A DNA stretch of 58,415 bases, filler included, from Sphacelaria rigidula (Eukaryota), in the NCBI GenBank assembly GCA_964200075.2. It is 5 parts of 5 records of this genome, joined end to end, with 100 filler letters (N's around TTAATTAATTAA, not from the genome) between each part and the next. Parts side by side here need not be neighbours in the genome. Positions count along the whole stretch, not along the records: positions 23,409 to 35,011 come from CAXNAA020004722.1; 4 more parts are not named here. One strand, 5' to 3'. The translations under genes were made by a program, and so were the position numbers. This document shows, one piece after another, positions 11,606 to 46,813 of the stretch. The notes beneath the pieces were generated by a model that was not told the origin of the DNA, did not search any database, and worked only from the letters and a program-made list of their open reading frames with translations. How positions within the stretch are numbered: the first letter of the stretch is position 1; the number at the start of each line of letters is the position of its first letter.

Positions 11606-11705
11606 NNNNNNNNNNNNNNNNNNNNNNNNNNNNNNNNNNNNNNNNNNNNTTAATTAATTAANNNNNNNNNNNNNNNNNNNNNNNNNNNNNNNNNNNNNNN
11701 NNNNN
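11606..11705. other. Artificial contig linker (N44-TTAATTAATTAA-N44)
   Basis: Six-frame stop linker flanked by N runs; identical at four positions. Confidence 0.98.
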
Positions 11706-17866: not shown

Positions 17867-19155
17867 CTGCGATGTGGCGCAAGAGGGTCACGCAAGCTAA
17901 AGGTTGCTGATTGAACGTTGGTTGCAGATTTATTCACAAATGTTCGATATGGTCTGTAGGGGGGTATGTAAGAAAGAGAGTTGGGGGGGTCGAAAATAGG
18001 GGTAGGTGCGTATACAAGAGTACATGTGGTGAATTGGACGCAACATACAATACATTGTCTTTCCCTCGTCCAAAACATAAAATACAACCACCCATCCCCA
18101 AACAATATTTCATTGTATTTCATATATTATATTTTATATAGTATTTTTCATTGAGTATATTTTTCATACCTCGTAAAGATGCTGGTATAGGTGGGGTATA
18201 CGGATGCATCCTGTCATACACATCATTGTATATACCGCACTGTGCACTGTACCGTGCGGTATTGTTACTGATGTGGAATTGTTCTTACCGTTGTGGGCCC
18301 GGTACCCAAACAGTTGTGTATTGCCGGAAAGGCGGCTGGCCATTTGTCACGAAGATTCAAGGTTGTGTTCGGAGGGACTTATCCGAAAGTGGGGCAAGAG
18401 TGAGGGATTTTTGGTTGGCTCACTAACCGAAATGGGTACCGAACACCACGTAGTATACGGTCCGGCAGAGTATCGAGCTTTGTTCCGAACAATCCGGTGT
18501 GGCTCGGAAGGATGTCCACCTGTAAATAGAATACTTATTTCATGTTTCTCTTTAAATACCCTGATTTCAGCCTGTGTACCCTGCAGAACACAAAAACTTC
18601 GCAAGGATCCCAGAAAATGTCTCCAAATTGGTTTTACAAAACCATAACCGTTTACCTCAGAAAATTCGCAGACGGCACTAACTGATAAACCCAGTACAGT
18701 ATATTATCCAGAATCAATCGCTTTCATGAAACGAATCCCCAAACATGTCACTGACAATATCCACACTAGAAGTACTGTATTCCATTATCAAGACACTACG
18801 TTACTTACGACGGAAACGAGCGCACCTGCAGTTGTTATCTGTTGACGGGCATTTGGCCACTGTACAGGTAATATACTACCTAGCAATGCCTGTTGTACAC
18901 TCATGGGGTGGATCATCCGGGTGTTGTTACATCCATTTTCCAAGTGAAAATGGTACCGACTGAAGAGATTCTGTACAGTACATTATTTATCTGCCGGGCG
19001 GTTTGCCGCCCAAGACCCGAAACGCACAAACGCCGGATTACCTCAAGTATCCTAGTCAGACGTTACTCGATCGCTTGGAGAGCGAAAGTGCGGGGAAGCT
19101 CCCGGTCCAAACTGGACTTAAATATTCTTGTTCTGCAACAACGAGGGTATACTGT

Positions 19156-19529
19156 GTGTTGTCATCCCATCTATTCTGGGCGACGGTCTACACCTTTCGC
19201 TATTAGATATAATATAATATGTGGGCACATCAGCCGGGGTCACACAGGAGGAGGAAGGTCAACACAGGAGCTTTTCTTTTTTATTTCTTTTTGGTACCCC
19301 ACCTTCCTTCTGCGGTGCTTGCCTTTACATTTTTTATCGCGAGAGGGGTTCAGCAGTCCCTTTCCCTCGTCGACCATTAAGTCGAATTTTGTGTACCCAC
19401 GACGTAGTCGCTCTCCACTTTTGGGCATGTTGTTGTTAGAGAAAATCCCAGATCGCTCCGGGAATCGAACCCCACTATTCAACCGTCAGAAGGTTACGAG
19501 GATACCAACGGAGCCACCGGGGCGACCGG
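19156..19529 (-). mobile_element. tRNA-derived SINE, family A, copy 3 (full length, with TSD)
   Basis: A/B boxes on the minus strand; ends ...GATGACAACAC; flanked by the direct repeat ATACTGT (19149-19155 and 19532-19538). Confidence 0.88.
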
Positions 19530-20049
19530 GCATACTGTATACATGAAACGTTGAACAATATGCTCTGCTTCGTCACGAAGAGGGACACCTTGTCCAAGCA
19601 GCTGAAAATCGAGATGGTTAATTGCGCCATCTCCTCGCGCTCAAGAAAAGGTGGGGGGAATCGATAGCGTCTCTGGAACGATATGGAGAGTGAGGGACAT
19701 CAGTTTATTCCGTCTGCAGTGCACACTGCTTGTTCCCTCTTATTCTCTCGCCTCACCCTTTTCTCGCGAGTTTCCCTCGCGCAAGCGTTGCCTCTTGACT
19801 TCTTGAGTACAGTATGTATCGAAGACAATCGAGTTCAATTCCTCCGTGCCGTTACATTACTCCAGTATAAGTAGTACGGCATGAAAGTATTTCGCAGGGG
19901 CGGGTGTGGGTAGATGAAAGTCGAAGTATTTCTTCACTCGTGTCATCAGATTGTTAGTTCTTCGGTTGGCCTTATTTGGGGCCTTGGGTCTCGCCCGTAG
20001 TCGGACTCTATGTTTATTTCTACTTGGCGTCGCGCGTCGAGTTGGAAAG

Positions 20050-23308: not shown

Positions 23309-23408
23309 NNNNNNNNNNNNNNNNNNNNNNNNNNNNNNNNNNNNNNNNNNNNTTAATTAATTAANNNNNNNNNNNNNNNNNNNNNNNNNNNNNNNNNNNN
23401 NNNNNNNN
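23309..23408. other. Artificial contig linker
   Basis: N44-TTAATTAATTAA-N44. Confidence 0.98.
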
Positions 23409-23482
23409 TCGATGAAATATTGTTTTTAGAGCTTATATCCGTTTTTAGGCTGGCCCAGCTCGTAGTAATGCTCATATCCGGG
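23409..23482 (-). repeat. Repeat at a contig end, shared with the end of contig 4
   Basis: Reverse complement of 46620-46695 (GAGCTGGGCCA.CCTAAAAACGGAT.TAAGCTCT.AAA.CAATAT.TCATCGA). Confidence 0.75.
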
Positions 23483-24586
23483 TCATCAAACGAGGGGACC
23501 TGTAGCTCCGGGCGTAGATCTATGGAAGCTTTTTTGGACAACTCAACAATAACGCTAACACTAACCCTAACGCCGACCTAAGGCGCACGAGACCCTCGAG
23601 CAATGGGGGTGCATAGGTACCCCTAGGCGAGGAGTGCGTTGGCAGACCTCAAATCGACGCCGCAGGCACCGATTTCGACAAAACTACGCTCTGGATGAGC
23701 TGAGTCCACTCCTCACTTGCCCTGAATCATAAATTTTTTCAGAACTTTCCCAAGTCTAGGATCAAGTAGTCATGCTGGCAACCATGGATATACGCCTGAG
23801 CTATAGGTCTACTGCATCAAACTCGTTGTGAGCTTACCTGTACATGTATGCCGCTCGTCGAATTCGGTGGCCATGGGTCCCCTTGAATTTTACAATCACG
23901 GCAAAGTGTGTAAAGTCAACCTTGACCATGACTCACAAACTAGCAGCCTTCGAACGGGCGCGGTGTTCGTGGATAATCTCCAGGCTTGAAACGGTTTATT
24001 CTTGTGCTGAACCTGTCGAGACCTACGAGAATGTCCCTGCTCTGCCCTCAGATTTTGTTTCCTAGAGTGGGCCACCGACCGTAGCTTACGGACCCTTTGC
24101 TTCGCCTGCAGATGGGCAGCTATGGCTAACATTCATGTAACAAGTCAGATGACGCCCGTTGGAGGGATGCACACCTTGGGCGCTCGAATGGTCAATGCTG
24201 TCTGAACGGCATGAGATGGAGAACTGTCTCAGATGTTTTCATTAGTAGCTTTCGATCGCTACTCGGGCAGGCGGTGAACTGGCTGACACCACGCCTTCTC
24301 AACGGCGCTGCAGGTTTACGAAGGGCTGAGAACACAACAAGATCGTTTGGAGAATTTTCCTGACGTTTCCACCACGAAACCGTTACCTTATAATATCGTT
24401 GAAACGCGTTGTCTCATATTAGTTTCCCCTCTCGTCTCTCGTTCTCGTCCTGGCGATCGACTCTATTAGAAGGGGCCATATCATGTACGATTCTAGGAAC
24501 AAAGTTGTCTAAACCTTCGTGCATCTTGACTTGTTTGTTCAAAATATGCGCCTTAGATCGACCCTCGGCGTGTGATAATTGATTAG

Positions 24587-24754
24587 GGTGGAACAGGCGA
24601 AGACGACGGTGGCGGCGGTATTGGTTCGATGAGCGACGGGTCGATCGTCTTGGTGGGCAGTACGATGGGCGACTGGGGTACCGAAAACGAGGGTGACGAA
24701 GACTTTGTGGGGGTTAAGCTGGACGCCGATGGAACGCTTCTGTGGATTTGGCAG
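24587..24754 (+). CDS. Beta-propeller-like (SBBP-type) repeat protein, repeat exon 1 (56 aa)
   Basis: tag|GGTGEDDGGGGIGSMSDGSIVLVGSTMGDWGTENEGDEDFVGVKLDADGTLLWIWQ|gtttgc; phase 0-0; homologous to three other exons. Confidence 0.85.
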
Positions 24755-26905
24755 GTTTGCCTTGAGCGAGATGCCAAAAAAATCAATGAACTTGTGTGAG
24801 AGAGTAGTAGTTGGAGCATTTATCCCATCAATTTTGATCACTTCAGGTATATGAAATCGTAGCGTTTTGTCCAAAGAGACTACTTGCGGTGAACTTGGGC
24901 CTACGGGCGCCGGGGGCCCTCTAGGCATGTGTTTTTACCTGTCAACGCAGTGCTATCAACAAGCTCAACGCAAGTAGTCTGGCCACGGACAACGGACAAG
25001 AGCATTGAGGTTCTCTTCATCGCAGCTTCCAGTGCAGTCCTTAGCCGGGATCACAGTGGCCGCAGTCCTTGGAGGCGTACACATTTGCGAAATTTATGTC
25101 GAGTATTCCGGGGTTTCATTTATTAAGTCAGTTGGGAGCATAGACGACGAAAACTTTGAGCAGTCTCGGTGGGTTTCGTAAGAGAGCTCTCACACAGCTA
25201 CTCGCTGGATCTCGGAGATGACAGTTACCAACGACATGGAAGGGGTCCACTAACGTGAAATAGTTCCCCTTGGCATTCGTCGTCCGAGCCTGTTGTTTGG
25301 CCGCTTGTGATTTGATTCACCACGTAGCCATCAAGCATCGGGTCATTTTCGACCGGTGTGGAAAAACTCGTGAAACATGTCGACAACCTACGGGACGCCT
25401 AATCGTATGGAGATGGTATTTTATCTTGTACATGCTCGTGTTTGGTACATGTGACGACCTCGTTGGTTCCATAATGCGGAAAATCGATCTCATATTTCTT
25501 GTTCGAATCCTTGCATGCCCCCTGCTACAAGGAATTTGGACCACTTCTACGATTCGCTTAGCTGGATAGTTTCCTTAAAACGATACCGCAAAGGCTTCAG
25601 CTATCGCGCGTTGGACGTGGGGCGATATCCTTTGGTTGATTTTCGCCCGAAATTGGCTACTTCAAGAATGGTGTTTGTTGAGACAGTGAAGGGTATCTAG
25701 CATACTCTTCATGTCGATCTACGGCAACATATCGGAACATAGCCTCATGCTTTTCCCTTCGACAATGAACGTACAGACGTTTTTCTGTAGTAAAGATCCG
25801 CACTCCCCCTACAGTAGGAGGATTCGTCTGTCTGTGAAAAATGCAGTCTGGAGTGAGTCGTAGTTACCGAAACTTGACTACGATAAATAGATCGTTAGAA
25901 CGACGGCATCTCTGTGCGTTCCTAGTAGGGTTTACTAAGCTGAAGGGCGTTTGTATTGAAAAACGCAGCAGTGTAACATCAATTATGTGAGGGCGACATC
26001 ACCCCTATTAGCAATAAGCGCACGGATGGTCCTGCAAAAAGGGGCATGAAGGCTTTGCTGTCTAGTAAGCTGCCGCGCCCCGGCGATCTACTGATTCAAC
26101 AAGTTCACACCCTGGGCAACATATGATCGATAGATGCAATAGACAAAAAAAAATGTACTAGGAAAAGTATAGGCCTTTTGCGTCTACGGTCGGTCGACAA
26201 TGGAAGTAATAGGCCTATACTTTACCCAGTACATGTTTTGTCTATTGCATCTGTCGACTACATACTGTCGAGGGTGTGAACAATTTAAATCATTTGGTCG
26301 CGAAGTTCGGATTCGCTCCCCGGCGCGAAGATCCGTTTGTTTCTGTCAAATACCCGATCCCCGTGGCTAGACACACGGGAACACAAGTGCGAAAAAAACG
26401 GTTTCAATTAGATTCAATGCGCGGTACGGCAGTGCCAATGCAAGCCGCGAAGCCAAATCGCGAGGCGTGTACCGGGGGAGAGGTGAGTTGATCCGTTGAG
26501 CTCGCGGACTCGTCCCGAGAAAGGAGAGAGGTTGAGACTCGGGACCAACGGCGAAACAACATCGAATCATGAATTTTCGGAGCAGCATGTGACGCACGTG
26601 CCGAGCACTTATTCTCAATCGGCATAAACGAAAATGCATTCCCTCGATGAACAAGTAGGGGAAGAGGAGCACCTTTAAAATCGTACCCGTTCACTGCGTA
26701 GTGATGTATTTCAATACTGGAAAAAACTCTCATTCTAGCTTCCTGGGGGCGTAACATGTGGTATCTTGCCCTCCCGTAATGTGTTCGTTTGAGTACACCA
26801 GACACGACATGCACCTCCGGTCTTGCCGATGACACTATTTCACAGGGGTGCTCTCTTTCATCCCCCATGTGCCGGGGAATACCTGCCTGCTTTCGGAACA
26901 AATAG

Positions 26906-27070
26906 GACGGGACATTGGCAGCTGATCGCATGATCAGCATCGAAGAAAGCGGCGATGGAGTGATACTAGCGGGTCGGACGAAGGGAGACTGGAGAGGGAC
27001 AACCGCCGGTAACATTGATTTCTGTGCGGTCAAGTTAGCGGCCGACCGTACTGAAATATGGAGGTGGCAG
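26906..27070 (+). CDS. Beta-propeller-like repeat exon 2 (55 aa)
   Basis: atag|DGTLAADRMISIEESGDGVILAGRTKGDWRGTTAGNIDFCAVKLAADRTEIWRWQ|gtgaat; phase 0-0. Confidence 0.85.
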
Positions 27071-27623
27071 GTGAATTAAGCTAGTGGAGCGGGCGGTGAT
27101 AGGGTCCCGAAATGTACCTTGAGCATGAGCCGCTAGAATCAGCAGAGTGATGGGGGGTCATCTCGATGTCTGCAATATAGTCAATACCACCCGTCTGTCG
27201 CATGCAGGTGTTGCAAAATTCCTCGCAGCATACACAACTTGTGGTCAGTGTCACTGGACAGTACTTCACAAAAGAGTCGGAAATGAAGGATGACGCCCAA
27301 CCGGCGTTCTCAATGCTCGAAGGACTGGGGTACAAAACACCTGGGTTCTTTTTCCAGAATCAAGACGCTGACTTTCCGCTCAGGAGATTCCGTTCTCTAT
27401 TCCAAAAGGTGCTCGATTCGGGCAAGCAAAGACCTCGTGTTCCCGACAGATGTTTTGAGCGTGCTCTTTGTGGAGATCCCGTGATGTCATTGCTTGTAGT
27501 GGCGGACATGCAGCACGTTTGTCTGACCTCCTGTCCTGCCTGACTCACCACCCGAGCACCATATTTGTTTCTTCGTCCAACCGCTGTGACCTTTTGTTGT
27601 TCCTTGTTGCTATCGCTGCTCAG

Positions 27624-27797
27624 GGCGGCACCGACGGGATCGACTACACCAAAAGTCTTTCGGTGGTGGACCTTGACGACTCCGTGGTGATAGCAGGATA
27701 CACGAACGACACTTGGAGTGTGACCAACGCCGGCGGTGAGGACCTTGCCGCGATGAAGCTTGACGCAGCAGACGGTAGCCTGCTGTGGCGTTGGCAG
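27624..27797 (+). CDS. Beta-propeller-like repeat exon 3 (58 aa)
   Basis: ctcag|GGTDGIDYTKSLSVVDLDDSVVIAGYTNDTWSVTNAGGEDLAAMKLDAADGSLLWRWQ|gtgagc; phase 0-0. Confidence 0.88.
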
Positions 27798-28426
27798 GTG
27801 AGCAGTTACTCCCGAGGCCCGCGATAGGCCCATTGGCATTACTCTCTATACTCGTTACGATTATTTTCGGCTTTTTTTCGGGCAAGTGGCGGACTAAGTA
27901 AGAGCCAGAACATACGGGAATGCTAGAGTGAGTACCGTTCGCGGTAAAGACCGTTGACATCAGTCTTCTTTACCTGAAGGGAAAATGCCTCCTGGGGAAT
28001 CGCTGCAATGGTGTGTGTGGGGTGGGGGGTAGGTAGGAGATATACTCTGTTCAAACAGATGGATTGCTTGTGACACGTGAAGTGATCCCCGAAGAACCCA
28101 GCTACGGTCCCAAGATGAACTAAATCAGAGTACAAGTATTGATAGGCAAAACGAGGATACTCTCTGAAAGAAACTCGAGAGGAGGAAACATGAGGGACAG
28201 AGGTAGTTGAATGAACAGGGCGCGAGACGAACGAAACTGAAGAAACAAGTGAGGCGCAGGAGAAGGAAATGGGGAAGCAAAATACGAACATGAATAGCGG
28301 GTCTCTATGAAAGAAGGAAATTCTGGCAAAAATGAAACTAAATGAAACAAAAAAGTAGAATCGCCGCCCTCTGCAGCATGGCTTTAGATAGACAGACCGT
28401 GCAAAAAGGCGAAACAGCAATATAAA

Positions 28427-28762
28427 CCGGTCGCCCCGGTGGCTCAGTTGGTAACTTCGAAACCCTCTGACGGTTGGGTCGTGGGTTCGAAATCTCGGAG
28501 CGATCTGGGATTTTTCCTCACACAATGCCCAACAGTGGAGAGCGACTATGTCGTGAGTACGCAAAATTGGACTTAATGGTCGACGAGAGGGAAAAGGACT
28601 GCTGAACCCCTTCGCGATAAAAAAAGAAGGCGAACACCGCAGAAGGAAGGTGGAGAGCTAAAAATAATAAAAAAAGAAAACCTTCTGTGTGACCCCGGCT
28701 GGTGCGCCCACATATACCGAACGCTGGAGACCGGCGTCCAGGAGAGATGAGACGACAACACA
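28427..28762 (+). mobile_element. tRNA-derived SINE, family A, copy 4 (full length)
   Basis: CCGGTCGCCCCGGTGGCTCAGTTGG (A box), GGTTCGAAATC (B box), family body, ends GACGACAACAC. Confidence 0.88.
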
Positions 28763-29594
28763 TGCGAACCACACCATACTATTCAAGCATGGCTCTTACT
28801 CACGAGCTCTATGGGGGCAAGACGCAAACACGACTATTAAAACTTGAATGTGGAGCCGAAGGTGTACAAAAAAACTGTATTTTCCCAACTTATGTATCAA
28901 AGAGTAATCGAAAATTAAAATTGAAACGCACGTTTCTTTCAACCTTTATTTGCCGAAAATTGTAGAGTCACTGGGTTTTTACCCATCTCGACCACCCTAG
29001 GGCATAGGTGTATTTTTCTACTTTTGATGTGTACCCTTGAAGGAGTGAAATGGAAAGGAAGCAAAAGATCACGCAAGACATGGGCGTAAATACAGCTTAG
29101 AACATCGGAAAGGTTGCGAACCATGAAAGAAACCAATAGCCGATGACAGGGAGACCGAGGAATATCGATTCCGTGTTCCCTTTGCCTATCCGACTCATAC
29201 CTAGTCGAGTACAAGGCGAGTCAATCTCTCGACTCCTCCTAACCTGTATTTCTCGTGAGCTGCCGCTGTTGTAGTTGTTACTGCTGTTGTGCCGGCTATG
29301 GCGGCTCTCGTTTAGATACTTCTAAAAGCAATTGAATTGCCGTGGTGGTGTAGGTCCTCCTGGTGTCGTTGAACTCCTCCGCGCCTTTCTCGAACCCTAC
29401 GTGCCGTATGTGCACGCTCTTCTGGACAGTGATTCAGTCTGGCGAGTATTTGACCTCAACATCGTGTACGAATCATTCCCTTTGATTCCCCTTTCGAGGT
29501 TAGAAAATATTCTTCCACTTGGGCCGAATCGTATCAGGGCGAAAACTTCGGTTGGAATGAGTCGTCTCTGCGATAACCCCCCCGTGCCGATATA

Positions 29595-30126
29595 CTTCCT
29601 CTGTCCCATAAGTAAGGGTACCTAACTTTGTACGGACCCTTAACGATGTCCGATCGCTTTTTTTAAAAATGAACTCTACGGTGTTTTTTTAGGTTGAGAA
29701 AGTGTGTTCAAATTTTGCAGCTCGTGCCTGAACCATGCCGCCGAACGGCTGTAAAAATAGTAGTCGGCCCAAAAATGGCCGTTTTTTGCCCCTTTCCGAC
29801 AGGAAAAAAAGTGGCGATTTTTTAAAAATTTGGTTTCTAATTGCCCCCGTCTTCACTGGGGCGTGCTGCCAGGAAGTCCCACACGATTAAAAAGAAAAGG
29901 ATCGTCACTTTTTTTCCTCTCGGGAAGGGGCAAAACACGGCCATTTATTGGCCGACTACTGTTTTTGCAGCCGTTCGGCGACATGGTTCAAGCACGAGCT
30001 GCAAATTTCAAACACATTTTCGTAACCCAAAAAACACCGTACAGTTCATATAAAAAAGAAGAAGCGATCGGGCATCGTCAAGGGCCCGCAAACATTTAGG
30101 TACCTTTACTTATGGGACAGAGGAAG
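29595..30126. mobile_element. Stowaway-like (Tc1/mariner) MITE, almost wholly palindromic
   Basis: TA|CTTCCTCTGTCCCATAAGTAA ... TTACTTATGGGACAGAGGAAG|TA; inverted arms extend more than 200 bp. Confidence 0.88.
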
Positions 30127-30128
30127 TA

Positions 30129-32502
30129 CTGGTGGAGAATGGAAATAGTAAGGAAATGGAAGTACATGCATGCGCGGAGGACGTGGGAACCACAGATCAC
30201 TGCTTAACATGGACAGAAAGCCCACAGACGAAAGCTAAACGAAATAGGCGAGGTAGGAAGTTGTACAACTGGAGAATCGATAAACTAGATATGGAAGGAA
30301 AACGGCAAGAGTTCCAAGAAGAGATGGCCAAAAACGCAGTGAAATGTTTCATGATGTTGAAACGCGTAGAAACAATTGATACCGAAATGGAACGAAATCG
30401 GGTAGGAGCGAAGATCATAGAAGGATGGGAGAGAGGTTCAAGAACACAGCGAGTGAAGTCAAAAGGAAGAAACTGATCGTATGCGACAGAGCAGTAAAAT
30501 GATGGGATGAAGAAGTAAAAGAGGCCATAAGAGTAAGGAGAGCGGCCCACGCAACATGGATATCGAGTAAAACTACGAGAGGATGGGAGGGGTATTCTAA
30601 AGCTCGAAAGGAAGTGAAGAAGACGATACAGCAAAAAAGGAAGGAAATATGGGCACATGTAGTGAATAAAACAAATGAATATTTCGACGGCGGGATGAAA
30701 CAAACGTGGGTAGGAATGAAAGGGATAACGAGAAACCAGGCAGGAAAGATGGACAAGAGGATGGCTACACTCCGGGCACAGAACGGGAAAATGGTCAGTA
30801 GTTCGAAGGGGAAGAGCGAAGTGCTGGTCAAGCATTACCGCAAACTAGGAACACCAGAAAAAACCACGGATTTTGACATAAAATTCGAAAAAAGAAATCA
30901 ACGCGTGGGCAGAGGCGAAGGTAGAGACGTCGAAGCGGGAGGATAGAGGCTCGACAGAATCGCAGAGAGAGCGTTCACCAGAGATGAAGTAAAGGAGTGC
31001 GTAGCTAAACTCAAAAACAGAAAGGCAACAGGGGCAGACGAAATAGTGACTGAATTTCAAAAGTACGGGGGAGAGGGAATGATTACCATGATGGTTATGC
31101 TGTATAACTTGATCTGGGGAAACGAGTACATGCCCAAGAGGTGGAGAGAAGGAGTAGTCAACCTTTTTAAAAAAGGAGACAAGACTGATCCACGAAACTG
31201 TAGAGGGATAACGCTGCTCAGCACGGTAGGGAAAACATTGTGCAAGAGTCTGAACGATATAGTAGGAACGATGCTAGAAAAGGAAAAACAAACCAACGAG
31301 GGACAAGCAGGATTTAGACCAAACCGTGGTTGCGTAGACCATGTGTACACACTAGGGGAGATTATTCAGGGTGGGGAAGACACCGGGCTGATAATGTACT
31401 GTTTATTTCTGAACGTGCAAAAGACTTGTGACACAGTATGGAGAAATGGGCTGTGGAAAACGTTATGGGGAGCTGATATCAGTGGAAAGGTGTGGAGAAT
31501 GGGGAAGATAACGGAATGCGCCAAAAGTGTGATGGTGCTAGCCGGGGAAATATCGAAATATTCCGAAATCTTACAAGAGGTTGCACAAGGATGTACGTTA
31601 TCACCCACTTTGTTCAAGGTATTTATCAATGACCTGATGAAAGATATGGTATCAGGATTGATTTTCGCGGATGATTTTGTGGGGATTTCAGGAACACCAG
31701 AAGGACTACAGNNNNNNNNNNCAAGTCCGGTAGAGTTCAAATGAAAGTGGGGAGACGAGGAATTGCCGATCGTAGACCAGTATACATACCTTGGCGTAGA
31801 GGTGTAGAAAAACTGTTCTTGGAATGCACACATGAACAAAGTAATGAAAAAGGGTAAGGCACAGATGGACAGGTGAGACGTGATCCTTAGAGGTGCGCAC
31901 CTGGACACTAGGATCAAGACATGTATCCAGATGAACGTGATCGTACCAAAGCTGGAATATGCACGAGAAGTATGGGAGGGGAACGTGAAGTTGGTGAAGA
32001 GTTTGGAAACAGTACAGATGGCAGCAGCTAAGGAGATACTTGGATGCTCAAAAACGATGAGTACTACAGCATTGAGAGCAAAGTTGGGGATGTATTCACT
32101 GAAAAGAAACGGAAACATAAGAGAATTGCTATGGCAATATAGCGTGAAGAACATGCAGAGAAAGAGATTGCCAGCTGAAGTTGGTGAGGCTGTATGGAAG
32201 AAAAATACGAGAGGAAAGACTGGAGTAAGGTGGGGTGAAGAACTCGAGAAAGTGTGGAAGGAGATGGGAGGAAATCAAGACGAAATACCGTCCATAGATG
32301 AAGGCCTGGGGTAAAAAACAAAAGTAAGATATGTGATCGAAATAAGGGAAAAGAAGCGCTCAGACGCGAAGTAGACGAGGAAGAACACCTCGAGCTATAC
32401 GGGGGGTTGAGGGAGGGGATAGGGATGGAAGCATATTTGCATGACCCAATGGGCCCTGCGAAAAATATGACATAGATATTTAGGGTGGGGGACCTGGACC
32501 TA
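30129..32502 (+). mobile_element. Decayed, 5'-truncated non-LTR retrotransposon (LINE) ORF2: end of endonuclease plus reverse transcriptase
   Basis: Motifs TTDHCL (APE C-terminus), KATGADEI, FKKGDKTDPRNCRGITLLS, QAGFRPNRGCVDH, QGCTLSPTLF, FADD and YTYLG; in-frame stops, frameshifts and a 9-N gap at 31712-31720. Confidence 0.92.
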
Positions 32503-33609
32503 TCTGTTGCTTGCTTTAGTCGTTTGACTATTGACCAAGTCTCCGCATGTGTAACCCTGTGGTCGCTAGGACGTCCCTCCTCTCACTCATTTTGTTTTCA
32601 AATAGCACACAAACACATGTTTTGAGAACGCCCTCGAACACTTTGAAGAAACCAGGGATACGCGAGAACAATCAGGATCGATCCTGACTGTTCTGTTCCG
32701 ATAGGAGACAGCGAGGGGGTACTCAGCCATCGCACAGCGGTGCATCAATTTCTAAGGCCGCGTAATATCGAGTCCCAAAGCAGAAGCGAGAAACGAAACA
32801 AGCGTCCGAATGCAGCATGTTGACTAGTCATCGCAACCGTAGACCCGCCCGGTGATCAACCAAAACGCTGTTTTTGGATGCTTGCCTCGTTTCTCGCTTC
32901 TTTTGTTTTGCCGCGATGAGAAGGGGCCGTAGGCGTACTGTCCCTGATTCACAGACGATTTCTGTACCCCTTGCTGTTGATTCTCGCTTAGTACGATGTC
33001 CTCGGTGTGCGACGAATCTGTCCTCACTTGAGAGATCAGATGGTTCGCGTCGGACCTTCCAAACAAAACCACCGACAAAGGGTGAAGAACTGCACGTTTT
33101 GGCGATTGTCCTACCATGCACAAGGTAGCCTATCCACCAATACTGAGTGTGAGTTGCCGTGGAACGAAGACTGCGGGTGTAGATGAACAAGAGCCAGCAC
33201 CAAATGAGATGCGCCTACTTGGCCGGTGTCTGTGCGTCGTTGTTCAGCCTCCTCGTGCCGATGTGATGTGTTTCGTTTACTGTCTGCTGACGCGAGGTTC
33301 AGGCGTTCAGAGTTGAGAGCACCCTATTCCGGTGTTTTAAGGCTATCAGAACCTAACTTCAGTGCAAGAAGAAACGATGTGGGAAGGGACGTGTTCCCGA
33401 TTAGACTAAACATCGGTCCTTACGGAGAACATATCACGTGCTAAAATGATCAATGATGATTTTTTCGTCGACGTAAGATTTGCATCGCACTTATAGTATC
33501 ATGCTGATGCTTGACGACTTGAACTTTTTATCCCTGATACCTGGTAGTCTTGTGGTGTTCATTACTCCGATTTTCGCTCTCGATTGCAACCGATCCGACC
33601 GGTCCCCAG

Positions 33610-33780
33610 TCTGGCACCGAAGAGGATGACTTTGCGAGAATTTCGGTGGCTACCCCAGACGGTGGCATCGTACTAGCAGGGCACTCGCTCGGCGATTGGG
33701 ATGGGGACAACGCGGGGGGTGACGGGGATTTCATCGCGGTCAAGATTAATACGGACGGGAAAGAGTTATGGAGATGGCAG
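33610..33780 (+). CDS. Beta-propeller-like repeat exon 4 (57 aa)
   Basis: cccag|SGTEEDDFARISVATPDGGIVLAGHSLGDWDGDNAGGDGDFIAVKINTDGKELWRWQ|gtgtgt; phase 0-0. Confidence 0.88.
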
Positions 33781-35011
33781 GTGTGTGCGAGAGCTGAGGA
33801 AATGATGAAGTCTGTTTTGGTGTGTGTGCTCACTTCGCCACAACGTTGAGAGGCGAGTGTTTCTCAACAACGCAGATAGAGAGACCGATAGGGCAAATAT
33901 GATGACTCTGTTACTCTAGAAATGATATATTCATGACTCCCGAACAGGTCCACATGTTCGTATTTTTTGTCAAAACAAAATGGAAGGTGATTATCGATGG
34001 TCGTAGCTGTACCTACACCATCGAAAGTGCGACGAAACAAAGGTGCGGAGATGTCAGGTAAGTCAAGAAACTAGCTGCACTCGGGGAAAGCTTCCAGGTC
34101 GCCCATCTCCAGACCGTCGATCCTTGTATGGCCACGTGAATCGCGGGGCAGTAGGTCTCGAGCACGTGAGCTGCGTGTTCACCCGCCACAGCCCCCTCCC
34201 CCCCCGACTTGCAGGGGTTAATGTTGTGAAGATTTAAGGGAGGCATCGCGAGACATCTGCGCATTGATACTTTAGAGAGATCGATGGGTGAGAAATACCG
34301 GGACATACAATATGAGCTTCATCGATGTTGACCCCGCGTATTCATTACAAATGTTATTGAAAGGGAGAAGACACATGGAGATGAGAACGACGTGAACCAA
34401 GTGACCAGTATTTGTTTGCCTCCTCGATTTCCCCCGAAATCCATAGGAATTGGGCCGTGCTACTGGGCTCGTCGGGTCGGCTCGTAGGCGTTGTTATGAT
34501 CCAACTACAGACGAAATATCTTGTCCAATGTCCTCGAGGAGATATGTGTCGGGGTTCTTGTCACCACCACTTGGGGACTGTTGTAGCGAGGTTTCGTCTC
34601 ACGGCGCAAATGCACATCCTGAAAGTCGCAATGGGTACCGCGTTGGAAATATGAAGGCGGCAGGCGCGCCAGCGGACTGCGCTGTATCTAATCTACTGAG
34701 GAGGACACAACAGATGCCGAAATATCGACACATGGCCGAATTAATCGAGGTGCATGTCGAGGGCTATCAGTTTTACATGTCGAGATACAGTGCTGAGAAT
34801 ATCAAGGACAGCACTCTAGTTCCAATTTTCGTTTCCCGCAGAACCGCTCGCGATCATCAGGAGTTCATGTATTGGTACGAACGCCAGTCTCGGGGGTTTG
34901 TGAGAAAACGACCACCGCATCCCGTATGGCGGTGGTTGGGGTGAACTGGTGAGCAATACTAAGGTAGGGGTGCACTTTTTTCGCGAAATTTTGTCTGGTT
35001 CAGGGGCTCCT

Positions 35012-35111
35012 NNNNNNNNNNNNNNNNNNNNNNNNNNNNNNNNNNNNNNNNNNNNTTAATTAATTAANNNNNNNNNNNNNNNNNNNNNNNNNNNNNNNNN
35101 NNNNNNNNNNN
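35012..35111. other. Artificial contig linker
   Basis: N44-TTAATTAATTAA-N44. Confidence 0.98.
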
Positions 35112-36682
35112 GGGTCTGTCTGTTCAGTACTGCCTGAGCGTCGTACTAGCTCCACACCTCCATCTGGTATCAAACGTCATGGCGCAACACGCGAGCGGCG
35201 GCCACGAGTACCCGACGCACGTAAATGTAGACAAGTGCTGTACTTCGACGGTGAGGCGACCGCCATCGCCGAGCACTTTGAGCTCTCAAAGCAATTTAAG
35301 ATGGCGTCTATACTAAAATCTCGATGAAACCCCCGATCGATGCATTCAGTGGATGACGACGAATTTTGGTGTGGACATTCTCTGGAGCAAGGGGGAGACG
35401 ATAGATACCCTCACCTTCACTTCATTCGTTTTCTATCCCGAGATATGGCGCACATACGTTTCCATACTAGAACCGATATATTACGAGCAGAGGCACTAGA
35501 TGCTCTAAATCTGGATATTGCGTCTCAGTTTTTGAGAGTTGTTGCATCAAATTTCGTGTGGTGGACCGCTAGTGCATTATAATGGAAAAAAACTGCTTGC
35601 TACCTTTCTTCATTTTTTTCGGGTTTTTTGTGGAGTTTTTTGAGGAGAAATGAACGTTGCTCTTAGGCCTTATCTCAATGTTTTAGCTCAATTTTTATAA
35701 TTGTAATATGAAAGTTAGTATGGAGAACCACAAAAGTGTGCCGAAGAAAAAGAAGAAACGGGTCTGCATTTTTTTTTTTTTTCATAGAGGTCAGGGCGTT
35801 CTCATGAAGAAATGGTCTTTACCATACTAAAACGCCCTAACCAGTGAAAAAGTGAATTGAAAAAACTGACCCACTGAGTTTTGTTAATTATGCGCTGGCA
35901 AGGGCCCATACAAAATTTCAATACCCAAAAACCAAACGTGGGCCGGTGAGTGGCCTGCAAAATATTGTTCCGAATTTCTACCGATCCGATTCTTGAAAGG
36001 CGAATGCGCCGGCCAATATTCAGAGTTGGACCCTGAAATTTGGTATGGACAATGCGTAGAGCACAATAAAAAATCCGGGAGAAGCACCAGAAGCTTTTTT
36101 TTTTCGTGAGTTAGGGGCAATGATCAGTTTTCAGGTTTCAGCAAAACGCCCGGCTGTGCTGTCGATGACTTGCCCTTCGCTTACTTCAGATCAGACCCGT
36201 AGGTTGTGTTGCATTCGCCGTCGTGTCACTCAAGACCTAGATATTTGCTTTGTGCAATACACTTGGACAACCACGCTGATGAACGATCATTTGCCTGACT
36301 AGCCCGAGCAGTATGTTGTACTGGAGTAGGGAGAGATGCATAAAAATTGAGGGCTAATTATGTAGTGGGGTGTGTTGGGTGTGCCCGTTGCAAAAGGGGA
36401 TGCGTTGAGGACACAACCGAGACGGTACATGTTACACGGTAGAACGGGTATATGCGTGGTTTTTTGTGGTTTTCACACTGAATGATGGACTCAACCATTG
36501 TCCATTCCTTCACTAAAAGACGTGAAGGGAGACCTGTCGATATATACTGCCGAGCACAGTAAATGGGGAAACGCGTCTTTTGATATGTATTGCAAGCGAC
36601 AGTAAATGCTGGAGCAATGATCAATAAATAATCTCTTGATAACAATAGATGAAGGTCATTGGCCATCGATTGATATTGTACG

Positions 36683-36983
36683 TGTGTGTTGTCGTCCCAT
36701 CTATTCTGGACGCCGGTTTACACCTTTTGGTATATGTGGGCGCACCAGCCGGGGTCACACAGGAGGGAGGTGCAACACAAGAGCTTTATATTTTATTTTA
36801 TTTTTTAACACCACCCCACCTTCTGCGGTGCTTGCCTTTATTTTAATCGCGAGAGAGGTTCAGCACTCCCTTTCCCTCGTCGACCGTCAAGTCGAATTTT
36901 GTGTACCCACGACATGGTTGCTCTCCACTTTTAGGCATGGTGTGAGAAAAAATCCCAGATCGCTCCGAGATCTGAACCCACGA
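36683..36983 (-). mobile_element. tRNA-derived SINE, family A, copy 5 (A box lost)
   Basis: Body and 3' end match the other copies; the head is truncated just upstream of the B box. Confidence 0.82.
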
Positions 36984-37009
36984 TCCCGTCCGTCATCCCT
37001 ATACCGTAA

Positions 37010-39611: not shown

Positions 39612-42600
39612 GAATACCTCGTGGTGAAAGTGTTCAACCGAGAACTGGGACTGTTCCTGACGTTGCTGCAGTTTTTCGGGTACGCTACCTACGCATGCCT
39701 GCGGCGGTGTCTCCATAAGGAGAAGGAAAGGAAGATTCCGCTCTCGTACTACTTCTTCCTGGGCTTGCTGCAGGTACAGTACACCATGCTAGTAGTTTGA
39801 CAATCGGCATCACATGTCGACCATGGACTTTTCATCTATCATGAATTCCCTTTTAAAAGAATTGACCAATAGGAAAACTGCGGGCATCTTTGTGAGCTCG
39901 GCTGTCATTCATTGGCTGTATTCGTAATTTGTGGGGTTGTGTCTTCTGTTGGGTACGATTTTTCTCGTATATCTGGGGTATTTTACCCGAGCATTACCCG
40001 TATCCGACAGTTATGTGAGCCTCCCATACCCATACAGGGAGCGCAGATGTGCCCTTATGAAGAAGCACTGTGGGGGTACCAGTTTCTGTACATAATCCAT
40101 ACCCTACCTGACAGGTCCTGTGGGTTCCTTGAGGACTTTCATGCCGGTGCCCGATAGTTCTGTAAGTTCTGTAGAGAATCTCATGCCGCCGAGTGTACTT
40201 GTACCCTACGGAATACAACCTCAATCATTTATGTGGCTTGCTGCTGCTTGTTAATGTACCACGCCTCCACGCCTCCGGGCTTACTTGTCTACCGTCCGTT
40301 TACCGTCCGTTTGGGGTCCCCTTCTTGAGCTCACACACGCGAAACAATACGATCGGGCTTTGACAGCATCTCTCGGAAATACTTGGAACTATGACCTCGG
40401 GGTACTTCTCTTTTGCTGTTGCGTTTTTGTTTTGTCAAGATGATCACGCCGTTATGCCAGCGGTTCAAAATGCCGCGTGTTTCTCGTCCCTCGCAGTGTA
40501 TCTCACTTGTTGGTGTACACTAGTGTCGTTTTTCTTCGCATGCGTTCGTGTGACCTGTTGCTCATCGTTGTGATTGTCGTTGACTTTTTGCAGGCGTGCA
40601 TGCAGGGTTTGACGAACGTGTCGATGATGTTCCTGCACTATCCAGCGAAGGTGCTGTTCAAGTCGTCCAGAATGGTGCCAATTATGTGCTTTGGCGTGCT
40701 GTGGCAGGTGTGGATGGATGTCTTGTGCTCGACTTTTGTGTTGGAGAATGGCGATAGATTAATCGATTTTCTCACATGTATATTGATCATCCAGGGGTGT
40801 ATGTTAAATGTAGCCTTGGATGCAGGAAACAAGACCAACAACACCCGCTACGGGAAACTAGAGAAAGGGAGAAGACGAAGAAGAGAACATTTATAAGCAA
40901 ACGGAGTGAGCTAGAACAAAAGAGAGTCTAACAAAACTGGAAGACAAAATCATATCATAAAACGGGAAAGGAAAGGAAAGGAAAGGAAAGGAAAGTGGGG
41001 TAAGATCACGAATAACCGGTGCCGATAGAAAAAAAGTCGCAACGACGACGGAATAAAACATGACGTCACACACTAGGAAACGAAACAGTGATGCTTACGC
41101 ACATGCGAAACGAGGGGAAAGCGAAGTCGCCCCGCTGTGCTGACCTGCGCCGTGGTGTCCACCAACCGCTCGGTCGTGCAGGGGCGCAAGTACGCGTGGA
41201 CGGACTACGTGGTGGTGTTTTTGATCGTGACAGGCTTGATTACCTTCATGAACGCCGACACCAGAGCACAGGATTCCTACGCGGGAGACTCGACGAGCTT
41301 GATCGGGGTGGCGCTCATCTCGATGGCCTTGGTTATTGATGCTGCGCTCATTAATATTCAGGTGAGGAAGGACTATGCCTCATCCCCTTGTGTGTTGAGC
41401 GTCGACTGAGGTGGGGAACATATTGATGATTTACGGCGTGTTTATGTGTCCCACCCGCAGATCGAAACCCATATTAGAACGAAGAACTCCGCATGGTGGA
41501 GTGTTGTTCCAATGTGTCGTCTTCGTAGCATACGTGGCCTGTGTCGCCTTGAAGGCCTCGCCCGTGCACCAGAATCATGCACGTGCTGTTGATTCAACCA
41601 CGTATCTTTTGGAGTTGGCGGCGGCTGCTGTGAAAATAGGAGCGCAGGTAGTGTGCAGCTCCGGTTAACGAAGATCGTGTGCTGCATGTGCGGTCGGTAT
41701 ATCTTGCTTTCAGTTGAACGATAACATCATTAGTAACATTCACAGCATGTAACACTGCCGTGAGTGTGTGTGTGTCGATTGGTGTGTGTATTGTGTTGTT
41801 CCGGTGGATGTGATGTGGTGCTTCGTACTCAGCTGGCAAGTGCACCCCGACTCATGTAGTGGAAATTTCCATGTGGGCTCAATCGCGGCGCTGTCCCCCC
41901 TCACCTTCGCTCCCATGTGTGCGTGCGTACCTGCAGCATTCTGTATTTGGCGCTTGCTTTCTTTTTCATGTATTTTTTCTACTTGTTGACGGAGGCAGTA
42001 CCACACACACGCACCCATGTGTTTCGCTCTGTCGTCTTTCAGGAGGAGATAATGAACAAGTACGACAGTTGCCAGGACGAGCTGATCATGTTTTCCTACC
42101 TCAGCGGCACGGTGTTTATTGCCTTGGCATGCCTCTACACCGGAGACCTTACCGAAGGTGCTCGCTTCGTTTACGATCAGGTGAGTGTCTCAGCTCTCAC
42201 GGCAGGTGCTTGTTGGTTGCTATTTTGCTACTCGCCGTGGTTTGGCGATGCCGCTACCAAAGGACGCAGTGTTGAGGACACTCGCATTGCCCTTTACCTA
42301 CACTCATGTTTGTCCATGTCTCTGTCTGATTTTTCAATTGACTCGCGTACTCGTATGCAAGTGGCCGTCCAGGCTGGGTCTGACTGGTACTCGGTAGCAC
42401 AAGGCACGTCCTGGCTTTATGCGTGCATACTCGACCTGGTACTTACTTCCTCACGTCAGTATGGGTCAAGAAACAAAACAGCCCACTCACACCACTCGGA
42501 ACGAACGGACCCGCTCAATTGTTGAATGTTACGAATCACCCCTACAGAAGATCGACCGCCGGAACGACGTGAAGAACAATCGCTTTGGCGTCAGCCATGA

Positions 42601-44672
42601 CTCCATATCCACATCACTTGGAGCGAGAGGGACCACATAGTAGCACTCGCTACAGTACGTCGTTATTTGGAGATATGTCGCCAACAGAGAGGAGGTACAT
42701 ACACTACCCCGCTGTAGCGTCGGGGTTATCAGCATTGAAAGACACCCGGACAAATTGTTCCGAACGGCGGCCACGCACCCGAAGAGTTGGAAACAACCAA
42801 CGCACCATGTATCTCATCAAGTCTTTCTTGTATCTCTGTATTGGCCTCTTTATCATGAGCATCAAGCCTCTCCCTACGCTCCCCTCGAACATACGTACCC
42901 TTGTCGCCGATAGGGTATCGGGTGCATTTTGGCGGTGATGCTCTTTGCGGGAGCCGGGTTTATGGGAGTGAGCTGCGTAGCGGCCCTGACCAAGCGCTTT
43001 GGCGCTCTGGCGTCGGCCATCACCACAACGGCGAGGAAAGCGGGAACGCTGCTTCTCAGCTTCGTACTGTTCCCCAAGCCCGTCTCTCCCCAGCACTACT
43101 TCGGCGCGGGCCTGTTCATCGTGGGGCTTGTGGTGCGTTCCTGGATGTTTTTTCATGACAGATTAAAGTGATGGGGATGGTTATCTGCGTTGTGTCAAGT
43201 CTCGCGACTTTTTGGGCCGCATTTGGCTAACTCCTTGGCCAAGGTTCCCCCGTTGGTTTGCCCTCCGTGTTCCGTTGCAATCTGACCCCCCTCCCCTCCG
43301 TATCTCCACTTCGCTGCGTGTAGTGTACGTACTTCACTTGTTGACCTATCGATTGTCGCTCATCGACTGATTCGGCTAGTTGTATACTATATCCTACACT
43401 AGCTACAACACCTCCAATATCAATCCGGACGTGGTCGCAAGATGAGCGTGGAGTTTTTTATGCAGACTGACTTGACTGCACGTCCACGACCTGCTAGCAG
43501 TTGTTGTCTTGAGTTTGTTTCAACGTGCTTGTTTTTATTTTCAGGGCCTTGAGCGTGCACGCGGTACTTTGCCCTATCATGAGATAACACACCGTAGCTA
43601 TTAACTTTTGACTCATCTGTACTGTCTCGTTCCGGTTGATCACCCTCTTGTGTTGCGTTGGATAGATCAAGTCCACGGGTAAGAGGAGCAAATCGGGCGA
43701 CAAACAGCTGTCTAGCGGTGGCGGGAGCGGTCGCACGGGCAAAGCCGCCCAAGAAAACTCTCCTGCGGCGACACCGATAGCGTATTACGACACGGGACGG
43801 AAACGACTCCTAGCCGTAAAAGAACCGGACCAGTTTGAAGTCAGGTAAGTGAGGGGGGGGCTCGCTTGAGTGAAGAGTGAAGACTTGGCTTGCACGAACA
43901 GATGAAGAGTTGGTTGCCTCATGCGGTTTTTCTCATCACTGTTCTGTGCTGGACTGTACCCTCCCAGCATCTGCGCACGCCGAGTTATTTTCGTCTGTCT
44001 TTTTATTTCATTTTTTGGGAATGTCGTTCAGCAAATTGAGTGTGTGCCATCACCCCGTGTGAACACTTGATCCTTTGTGTCGAGCAAGCGAGACGGTAAG
44101 AAATATCTCGCTGCCCTCCGGGGAGGACAGCGCTCACGCAAAACAATTCCCGCACACGGTCGTGCTCTATCTGCCTGCAGATGTTTGTCTCGATAGACAC
44201 CAGGGTAGACCATTGATTGCTAAACCTCGTTATTCCCTGCGTCTGCTGTCTTTTGTGAATACACACAAACATCACTCCACCTCTTGCTGACGTCAGCAGC
44301 GTCGAGGCACCGCTACTTTCTGATTCTGGCAACGGCGGAGCTAGCAGTAACGCCGACAACAGCGGTACCGGAGGCGCCCCCGATCCTGTTCCAAATAGGA
44401 CCGAAGGCCAGGTCGCGGTACCAGGGAACTCAGGCGGCCACCCAGCTCGGCATCGCGGGAGTACACAGAACGGTCGTAGCCCAAGGATGAACGGCGCGAA
44501 CTTTCCGGGGAACGGTGGAGTAGGTGTGAATGGATATCGGAGGGCCCGACATTCTCCTTCCCTTGACAATACTAGTTTTGCATTGGCGGACGGGTTGGGG
44601 TCCCCCACGAGGCGAAGGTACCATCGCCCAATCGGCTCCCCGCCTGTGACTGGATTGGGTTTTAGATCGTAG
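39612..44672 (+). CDS. SLC35B3: SLC35B3/PAPST2-like nucleotide-sugar/PAPS transporter (UAA family), 5'-incomplete; exons 39612-39773, 40594-40707, 41182-41361, 42043-42180, 42914-43132, 43666-43844, 44297-44672
   Basis: All junctions are canonical and in frame. Family motifs include FLTLLQF, LTNVSMMFLHYPAKVLFKSSRMVPIM, GRKY, DAALINIQEE and FGALASAITTTARKAGTLLLSFVLFPKP. Stop TAG at 44670-44672. Confidence 0.9.
39933..40220. mobile_element. MITE family with GGTTGTGT..CTGT(A/T)GGGTACG TIRs, copy in transporter intron
   Basis: Termini GGTTGTGTCTTCTGTTGGGTACG and GTACCCTACGGAATACAACC; internal motifs are the reverse complement of those at 56083-56662. Confidence 0.7.
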
Positions 44673-46713: not shown

Positions 46714-46813
46714 NNNNNNNNNNNNNNNNNNNNNNNNNNNNNNNNNNNNNNNNNNNNTTAATTAATTAANNNNNNNNNNNNNNNNNNNNNNNNNNNNNNN
46801 NNNNNNNNNNNNN
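46714..46813. other. Artificial contig linker
   Basis: N44-TTAATTAATTAA-N44. Confidence 0.98.

Follow-up and report, generated by a model that had tools for sequence, protein, structure and literature searches.

Does a gene in which each exon encodes one complete protein repeat, and in which every intron leaves the reading frame intact, serve to generate protein diversity, or is such a layout a fixed property of the gene? This question is raised by a locus in a stretch of 58,415 nucleotides (nt) from Sphacelaria rigidula (assembly GCA_964200075.2), hereafter the window, which was assembled from five pieces, each 11,603 nt long. The pieces need not adjoin one another, and the locus lies entirely within the third (positions 23409-35011). 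A preliminary description of the locus reported four exons of 165-174 nt (here e1 to e4), all of phase 0-0 and ending in TGGCAG/gt, each encoding one divergent repeat of about 56 amino acids (aa), and suggested that they form a system of diversification by exon shuffling or alternative splicing, as proposed for the LRR-ROCO and the NB-ARC-TPR genes of brown algae. The explanation that we favour, and consider likely, is a different one: e1 to e4 are internal exons that follow one another in an expressed gene from a brown alga (or from a very close relative), they encode four of presumably seven beta-propeller blades of the SBBP/DUF5122 type, and they are spliced constitutively in a fixed layout.

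The four exons were found at the positions and with the properties previously described (Table 1): each lies between an AG and a GT, has TGGCAG as its last six letters and is a multiple of three in length. The alignment of their translations contained 12 invariant columns (G2, T3, D7, G24, W30, G37, D40, K45, D49, W54, W56 and Q57), and the translations of e1 to e3 were 41-48% identical to that of e4. When all 1949 six-frame fragments of the window were searched with a profile built from the four repeats, the exons were recovered with E values between 1e-30 and 1e-28, the next best hit having an E value of 2.2. Similar results were obtained with a family blade profile built from 203 blades of relatives and the four window blades (5e-21 to 5e-24 among 2592 fragments of the window; next best 3.1), and with a DNA profile searched against the window by nhmmer (1e-36 to 1e-38; next best 0.1). 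The window contains exactly four copies of the blade, all on the + strand and well beyond chance, and the translations and profile searches bear out the claim of one divergent repeat per exon. The N-terminal part of the repeat had also been described as its most variable part. This holds both in e1 to e4 and in the 203 blades from 29 relatives, in which entropy reached 3.0-4.0 bits at blade positions 4-6, 8-10 and 14-16 and was only 0-1 bit at G2, T3, D7, G24, D39, G49, W53 and Q56.

The preliminary description had raised the case of exons that are neither transcribed nor spliced, and this case was examined with read contigs mapped on the third piece, from one DNA-like run (X1) and three RNA-like runs (X6, X7 and X8). 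In each RNA-like run, one contig (depth 295-436) bears the joints 24752/26904 and 27067/27621, and a second contig bears the joint 27794/33607. All three joints are of the GT..AG type and, with the first cut at +2 and the other two at +3, shifts of 2-3 letters place them exactly on the predicted borders. No contig of X1 bears an exon joint, and in this run the introns are covered unbroken (e.g. 23654-26239 and 26217-27770). Depth in X6-X8 was 125-290 in exon bins versus 0-6 in unique intron bins, whereas in X1 it was about 30 in both. Because RNA contigs cross the joints at the predicted borders while DNA contigs traverse the introns, e1 to e4 are genuine spliced exons, joined in the order e1-e2-e3-e4, and they are transcribed and spliced in the contigs of all three RNA-like runs. 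Among the 15 joints listed for X6-X8 (there are 364 further joints), the only canonical GT..AG joints are e1-e2, e2-e3 and e3-e4.

The contigs also place the four exons within a longer transcript. The contig bearing e1 to e3 maps from its letter 297, at position 24585, and its letters 1-296 have no match on 23409-24584, an interval with an RNA depth of about 0 outside a repeat. At the other end, a contig of 2561 nt from X6 contains the end of e3, then e4, and then 2359 nt without a match on the piece, leaving it at 33781. Since 296 nt upstream and 2359 nt downstream have no place on the piece, e1 to e4 are internal exons of a transcript of some 3.3 kb or more; the neighbouring exons are more than 1.2 kb away on both sides. 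The interval 33752-34969 is covered by low-depth RNA contigs (2-6) alone, as expected of an unspliced precursor. All contigs, DNA and RNA, break at position 27771, inside e3, and this position is therefore probably polymorphic.

The repeat itself is, on the basis of profile homology, predicted to be a beta-propeller blade of the SBBP/DUF5122 type (PF06739, PF17164). A protein search with the four-blade profile yielded 13,226 matches at E ≤ 1e-3, 3,860 at E ≤ 1e-10 and 157 at E ≤ 1e-30, and about 69 of the 150 matches listed, as counted from the table of matches, had seven matched stretches. Two groups could be distinguished among these matches: many bacterial proteins with the SBBP motif, and a tighter group with the border W-x-W-Q/[DG]-G-T between blades. 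Several relatives exceeded the Pfam threshold (P0048, SBBP, 53 bits; P0027, 41.3 bits; P0018, DUF5122, 33.2 bits), and the family profile matched a protein named 'SBBP repeat-containing protein' (P0059) at E 8e-134, together with many PF06739 proteins. The earlier attribution of the repeat to an SBBP-type (PF06739-like) blade is supported by this homology, by the Pfam matches of the relatives, and by the predicted fold of one of them.

An AlphaFold2 model of that relative (P0010), computed with an 18-row alignment, had a mean predicted local distance difference test score (pLDDT) of 81.2, a predicted template modelling score (pTM) of 0.79, and 28 strands. The model suggests a closed propeller of seven four-stranded blades. 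The strand at its N-terminus (E-L-W-S-W-Q) stands alone and copies the strand that closes each repeat, except for the last repeat, in which the closing strand is missing. The start of the chain would therefore be the D strand of blade 7, and a full blade A-D would be formed by each G-T...W-x-W-Q unit, with the strand order being read off the strand list and not off the coordinates. If the unit is a full blade, each window exon encodes one structural blade and the introns lie between blades. The best Foldseek match of the model was CylK (E 3e-29, template modelling score 0.76, root-mean-square deviation 2.0 Å, 28% identity), which was also the sole natural solved structure found by sequence (family profile, E 1.5e-70). 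CylK, a cyanobacterial Friedel-Crafts alkylating enzyme (PDB 7fh6 and 7ron), shares the SBBP-type seven-bladed propeller with the family. It differs in its extra N-terminal calcium-binding domain and in being a soluble bacterial enzyme encoded by a gene without introns; unlike CylK, the algal family proteins show no sign of being enzymes.

The in-silico spliced product of the four exons (226 aa) had its best match in a protein of Ectocarpus fasciculatus (P0171; 50% identity over 230 columns, residues 68-294), with further matches in Ectocarpus sp. 12 (P0170, 48%), in P0167 and P0009 (48-49%) and in kinases (38-45%). Residues 68-294 of P0171 correspond to its blades 2-5, and the best register against P0171, P0170, P0009 and P0167 was an offset of 1. 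Over 29 relatives, an offset of 1 was best in 13, 2 in eight, 0 in six and 3 in two, a weak positional signal that is clear for the closest relatives only. According to these alignments, e1 is probably blade 2 of seven and e1 to e4 are most likely blades 2-5; this register agrees with the 296 nt of upstream transcript, which would hold about 66 codons and a short leader. P0171 and P0170 are propeller membrane proteins that carry an XK-related domain at the C-terminus (unnamed products) with the same W-x-W-Q/[DG]-G-T blade borders as the window gene, and the sequence likeness of 48-50% covers four blades only. A word-based search with e4 alone gave a single weak bacterial match (P0004, E 1.8e-3), and the product of the window gene itself is thus absent from that protein collection.

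The relatives provide a context for the part of the gene that lies outside the piece. Thirteen of the 20 top relatives have brown-algal names (Ectocarpus spp., Ascophyllum, Scytosiphon, Sphacelaria, Discosporangium, Choristocarpus, Hapterophycus and Nemacystus being represented), one is from Chrysoparadoxa, and six have no species name, including one labelled 'IPT/TIG domain' (P0008). A search with the family alignment found 341 proteins at E ≤ 1e-20, and about 40 of the best 120 had brown-algal names; as judged by these matches, the nearest named relatives of the window blades are brown-algal proteins. The blade count in 35 relatives was seven in 29 (30 with P0011, which was wrongly dropped by a filter for the N-terminal closing strand), six in four and four in one. 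Behind the propeller, a stalk rich in Ser, Thr and Pro, a membrane helix and a short tail were found in P0017, P0048, P0069 and P0157. In P0069, for example, a leader precedes the seven blades, which are followed by a long Thr/Pro stalk, a membrane helix and an Asp-rich tail; a hydrophobic leader is also present in P0048 and P0085. Eight of the best 120 relatives contain kinase Pfam domains (P0172, P0174, P0175, P0176, P0180, P0185, P0187 and P0190), in the arrangement propeller, membrane helix and protein kinase, and one of them (P0190) is named 'Transmembrane receptor kinase [Ectocarpus siliculosus]'. In Ectocarpus spp., a multi-pass XK-related domain follows the stalk and helix (P0170 and P0171 among the best 120, and also P0156), and P0177 has a CBM6 domain behind the propeller. 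The family was earlier proposed to consist of receptors, lectins or adhesins, and from the tails of these relatives it does look like a family of surface receptors or adhesins. The occurrence of one head with kinase, XK-related, CBM6 or stalk-and-anchor tails points to shuffling at the level of domains rather than blades. As a separate observation, we found no paper on the fusion of a seven-bladed propeller, a mucin-like stalk and an XK-related domain seen in P0170, P0171 and P0156.

Two recent preprints link the propeller ectodomains of brown algae with a new receptor-kinase class and with the species-specific recognition of gametes. The passages seen of the first describe newly found brown-algal receptor kinases with a beta-propeller ectodomain (bioRxiv 10.1101/2024.02.19.579948), and the kinase relatives found here most likely belong to this class. 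The second, in the parts available, describes PKN (gene Mr5f_014485), a fertilisation factor of the female gamete of Scytosiphon, in which a signal peptide is followed by a 7-bladed propeller, a mucin-like region, a membrane helix and an acidic tail (bioRxiv 10.64898/2026.02.20.706836). PKN, as described there, shares this type I layout (7-bladed propeller, mucin-like stalk, membrane helix and short tail) with P0069 and P0017, and its fast-evolving surface loops on a conserved core can be likened to the family.

In the explanation that we favour, each exon would encode one four-stranded blade (A-D), with phase-0 introns in the D-to-A link, directly behind the invariant W-x-W-Q strand. Judged by its relatives, the propeller would be the N-terminal, probably extracellular, ligand-binding head of a single- or multi-pass membrane protein. 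As in the relatives, this head would continue into either a receptor kinase, an XK-related domain, or a Ser/Thr/Pro-rich stalk that leads to a membrane helix and short tail. Splicing would be constitutive and in genomic order, and the blade-per-exon layout would be an old, fixed feature and not an active diversification device.

Several observations weigh against this explanation. In a Pfam scan of single exons, e1 and e4 matched DUF5122 at 16.9 and 15.8 bits, respectively, below the cut-off of 27, and e2 and e3 had no match. No close orthologue of the gene was detected, the best identity being 50%, and in a tree of propeller domains the gene fell inside the brown-algal group on a long branch, without a firm placement; the MAFFT alignment underlying this tree spread the four window blades over six. 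The piece holds about four of the presumed seven blades, and we infer the seven blades, the membrane helix and the C-terminal domain for this gene. The outside-facing topology is insecure, many relatives beginning with M-A-T-E-x-W-x-W-Q and having no evident signal peptide. The labelling of X6-X8 as RNA is a guess, and all three runs come from one study. Contigs drop rare isoforms, and minor alternative splicing could escape detection. Finally, each RNA-like run contains an extra contig in which 31 letters on 27768-27798 are followed by 33727-33781, with non-canonical ends. Its depth is like that of the main contigs, other letters possibly lie in between, and the bin arithmetic of X6 fits this cover exactly. 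This extra contig may stem from another allele or variant in which the variable part of e4 differs, or it may be an artefact of assembly.

An alternative for the part of the gene that lies off the piece is that the window gene encodes a beta-propeller receptor kinase, with the downstream 2359 nt encoding the other blades, followed by a membrane helix and a protein kinase. The brown-algal receptor kinases have a homologous seven-blade head and belong to the same lineage as the window gene, and three of the eight kinases among the best 120 relatives (P0176, P0174 and P0172) are among its nearest rows by tree path; a class of this kind is described in the available part of the first preprint, and a transcript of at least 3.3 kb could contain about 1040 codons. 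However, the kinases match the spliced product at 38-45% identity, and the best matches are non-kinase proteins (P0171 and P0170, 48-50%; P0167 and P0009, 48-49%). The tree, moreover, gives no firm placement, and a tblastn search with 270 family proteins detected no further exon (kinase, XK or stalk) anywhere in the window, although its pieces need not be neighbours. A receptor kinase is thus a possible but rather unlikely identity for the gene.

The proposal that the symmetric blade exons form a diversification system, in which shuffling within or between loci, or combinatorial or mutually exclusive splicing, would produce variable propeller receptors, can be compared with the Ectocarpus ROCO-LRR and NB-ARC-TPR genes. 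According to the available passages of the papers on these genes (PMC3341825; PMC11378527), these genes are marked by exons of identical length (72 nt) with near-identical copies, by introns that contain spare repeat exons, whole or decayed, on both strands, by recombined paralogues and by numerous splice variants. The likeness had been drawn from the one-repeat-per-exon organisation, and to this extent it stands: in both cases there is one structural repeat per exon, with symmetric, frame-preserving introns, in putative recognition proteins of a brown alga. It does not extend to the marks of shuffling. The exon lengths are unequal (168, 165, 174 and 171 nt), and the exons share 53-61% DNA identity, compared with 48% for shuffled sequence and 45-53% for 150-nt intron flanks. 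Profile searches of both strands, covering the 9 kb of introns and the rest of the window, revealed no spare, relic or inverted blade exon. DNA depth in X1 over the exon bins was 31-36, equal to that of the unique flanks (56 in a bin including part of intron 3; likeness cut-off 90%), and there are thus no near-identical exon copies elsewhere; recently exchanged exons were not found.

Other observations are more favourable to this proposal. The four exons are each one repeat long and all of phase 0-0, variability is greatest in the N-terminal third of the blade both here and in the family as a whole, and this multigene family combines the propeller with several C-terminal domains. The second RNA contig, which connects the end of e3 with the final 55 nt of e4, is unexplained and occurs in all three RNA-like runs. 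In addition, the genome-wide screen of PMC3341825, as described in the part available, kept only successive phase-0 exons of identical length and would have missed e1 to e4. Against this, no canonical joint other than those between successive exons was present among the joints listed. Furthermore, an open solenoid tolerates any number of repeats, whereas a closed propeller does not: it requires a set number of blades, which is seven in 29-30 of 35 relatives, so a protein that lacks an exon would in most cases be expected to misfold. By itself, a neat symmetric arrangement of exons is no evidence of a diversity generator, and a diversification mechanism is not supported at this locus. We consider such a system very improbable for the window gene.

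A broader form of this proposal, which we regard as very improbable, is that SBBP-type propellers, including the receptor kinases and PKN-like proteins, are a third brown-algal recognition family with frame-neutral repeat exons, in which blade exons are swapped or alternatively chosen. If this were true, the family would stand beside ROCO-LRR and NB-ARC-TPR, and its binding face would be varied by the choice of blade exons. In the window gene, the variable part would be the first two thirds of e4, as possibly hinted at by the second e3-to-e4 contig. The earlier screen (PMC3341825, in the part available) would then have missed the family by keeping only exons of identical length.

It is more doubtful still that the window gene is the orthologue of Scytosiphon PKN. 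PKN has the architecture of family members such as P0069 and, according to the preprint, is reported from brown algae alone, like most of this subfamily. However, the likeness is one of described architecture and not of compared sequences, and PKN is described there as having long distal loop insertions on one face, whereas the window blades are compact (55-58 aa). With several family members per species, the prior for any single gene is low. An origin of the exons by chance or as spurious open reading frames (ORFs), and an antisense ORF at 26404-27075, were ruled out by the spliced RNA contigs.

If, as we favour, the blade-per-exon layout is an old and fixed feature, two origins are conceivable: the propeller may have been built by exon duplication, or introns may have been gained at CAG/G sites of the conserved WQ-G motif. 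A metagenome scan found only three copies of one intron-free relative (L001, L002 and L003), and no brown-algal genomic locus. This relative (598 aa; L001, 4517-6313) has a Cys-rich N-terminal part followed by seven WRWQ/DGT blades. The contigs are gene-dense, with a guanine-cytosine content of 38%, and the adjoining genes encode a RING-finger protein, Thg1 and a hybrid histidine kinase. Five of the seven blade borders of this relative read TGG CAG/G. Since the W-Q-G motif yields a CAG/G site at every border, introns could have been gained in parallel, and we give this possibility and old exon duplication equal standing. Of 21 partial brown-algal gene models, five have their start and three their end at a blade border; in several the first residue is the Q that immediately precedes G-T/S, and others stop within a blade. 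This is a weak hint that the blade-per-exon layout may be common, but not uniform, in brown algae.

The window gene is an expressed new member of a partly described receptor-like family. What the locus adds is a layout of one blade per exon, with introns falling, according to the modelled relative, precisely between structural blades, in a gene that is transcribed and spliced as predicted from the DNA. We found no paper describing this layout for the brown-algal family of SBBP-type propellers, and the passages seen of the preprint on propeller receptor kinases (bioRxiv 10.1101/2024.02.19.579948) make no mention of it.

Table 1. Positions of the blade exons, introns, repeats and artificial spacers in the window.
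Feature	Position	Strand	Details
Intron preceding e1, 3' part	23409-24586	+	Upstream exon(s) (296 nt in RNA contig) off the piece
Blade exon e1	24587-24754	+	168 nt, 56 aa, phase 0-0
Intron 1	24755-26905	+	2151 nt; skipped in RNA contigs, unbroken in DNA contigs
Blade exon e2	26906-27070	+	165 nt, 55 aa, phase 0-0
Intron 2	27071-27623	+	553 nt; skipped in X6, X7 and X8 contigs, GT..AG
Blade exon e3	27624-27797	+	174 nt, 58 aa, phase 0-0
Intron 3	27798-33609	+	5812 nt, packed with high-copy repeats; RNA joint 27794/33607
Blade exon e4	33610-33780	+	171 nt, 57 aa, phase 0-0
Intron following e4, 5' part	33781-35011	+	Next exons off the piece
Palindromic multi-copy element (foldback or MITE-like, i.e. 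like a miniature inverted-repeat transposable element), intron 1	26083-26301		Arms 66 nt, 77% complementary
Palindromic multi-copy element (foldback or MITE-like), intron 3	29593-30128		Arms 139 nt, 86% complementary
SINE-like (short interspersed nuclear element) dispersed repeat	28427-28780 (intron 3), 19153-19530, 36671-36995		75-93% identity between copies
Decayed LINE-like (long interspersed nuclear element) retroelement, intron 3	~30054-32500	+	RVT_1 E 3e-13; frame breaks; 10-N gap 31712-31721
Artificial spacers (four, identical)	11606-11705, 23309-23408, 35012-35111, 46714-46813		100 nt each: 44 N, TTAATTAATTAA, 44 N

The repeats of intron 3, including the SINE-like unit, reached DNA word depths of up to 7e5, versus about 30 in unique DNA. 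The SINE-like copy in this intron is inverted relative to the two other copies, and ARAGORN and Rfam detected no tRNA in this repeat. The LINE-like element has a very high copy number and a strong purine skew. Rfam and tRNA scans of the whole window gave no matches. The fourth piece of the window contains a multi-exon gene for a nucleotide-sugar transporter of the UAA family (40444-43168, + strand), in which three ORF fragments correspond to consecutive stretches of PF08449 (positions 73-116, 114-181 and 240-307).

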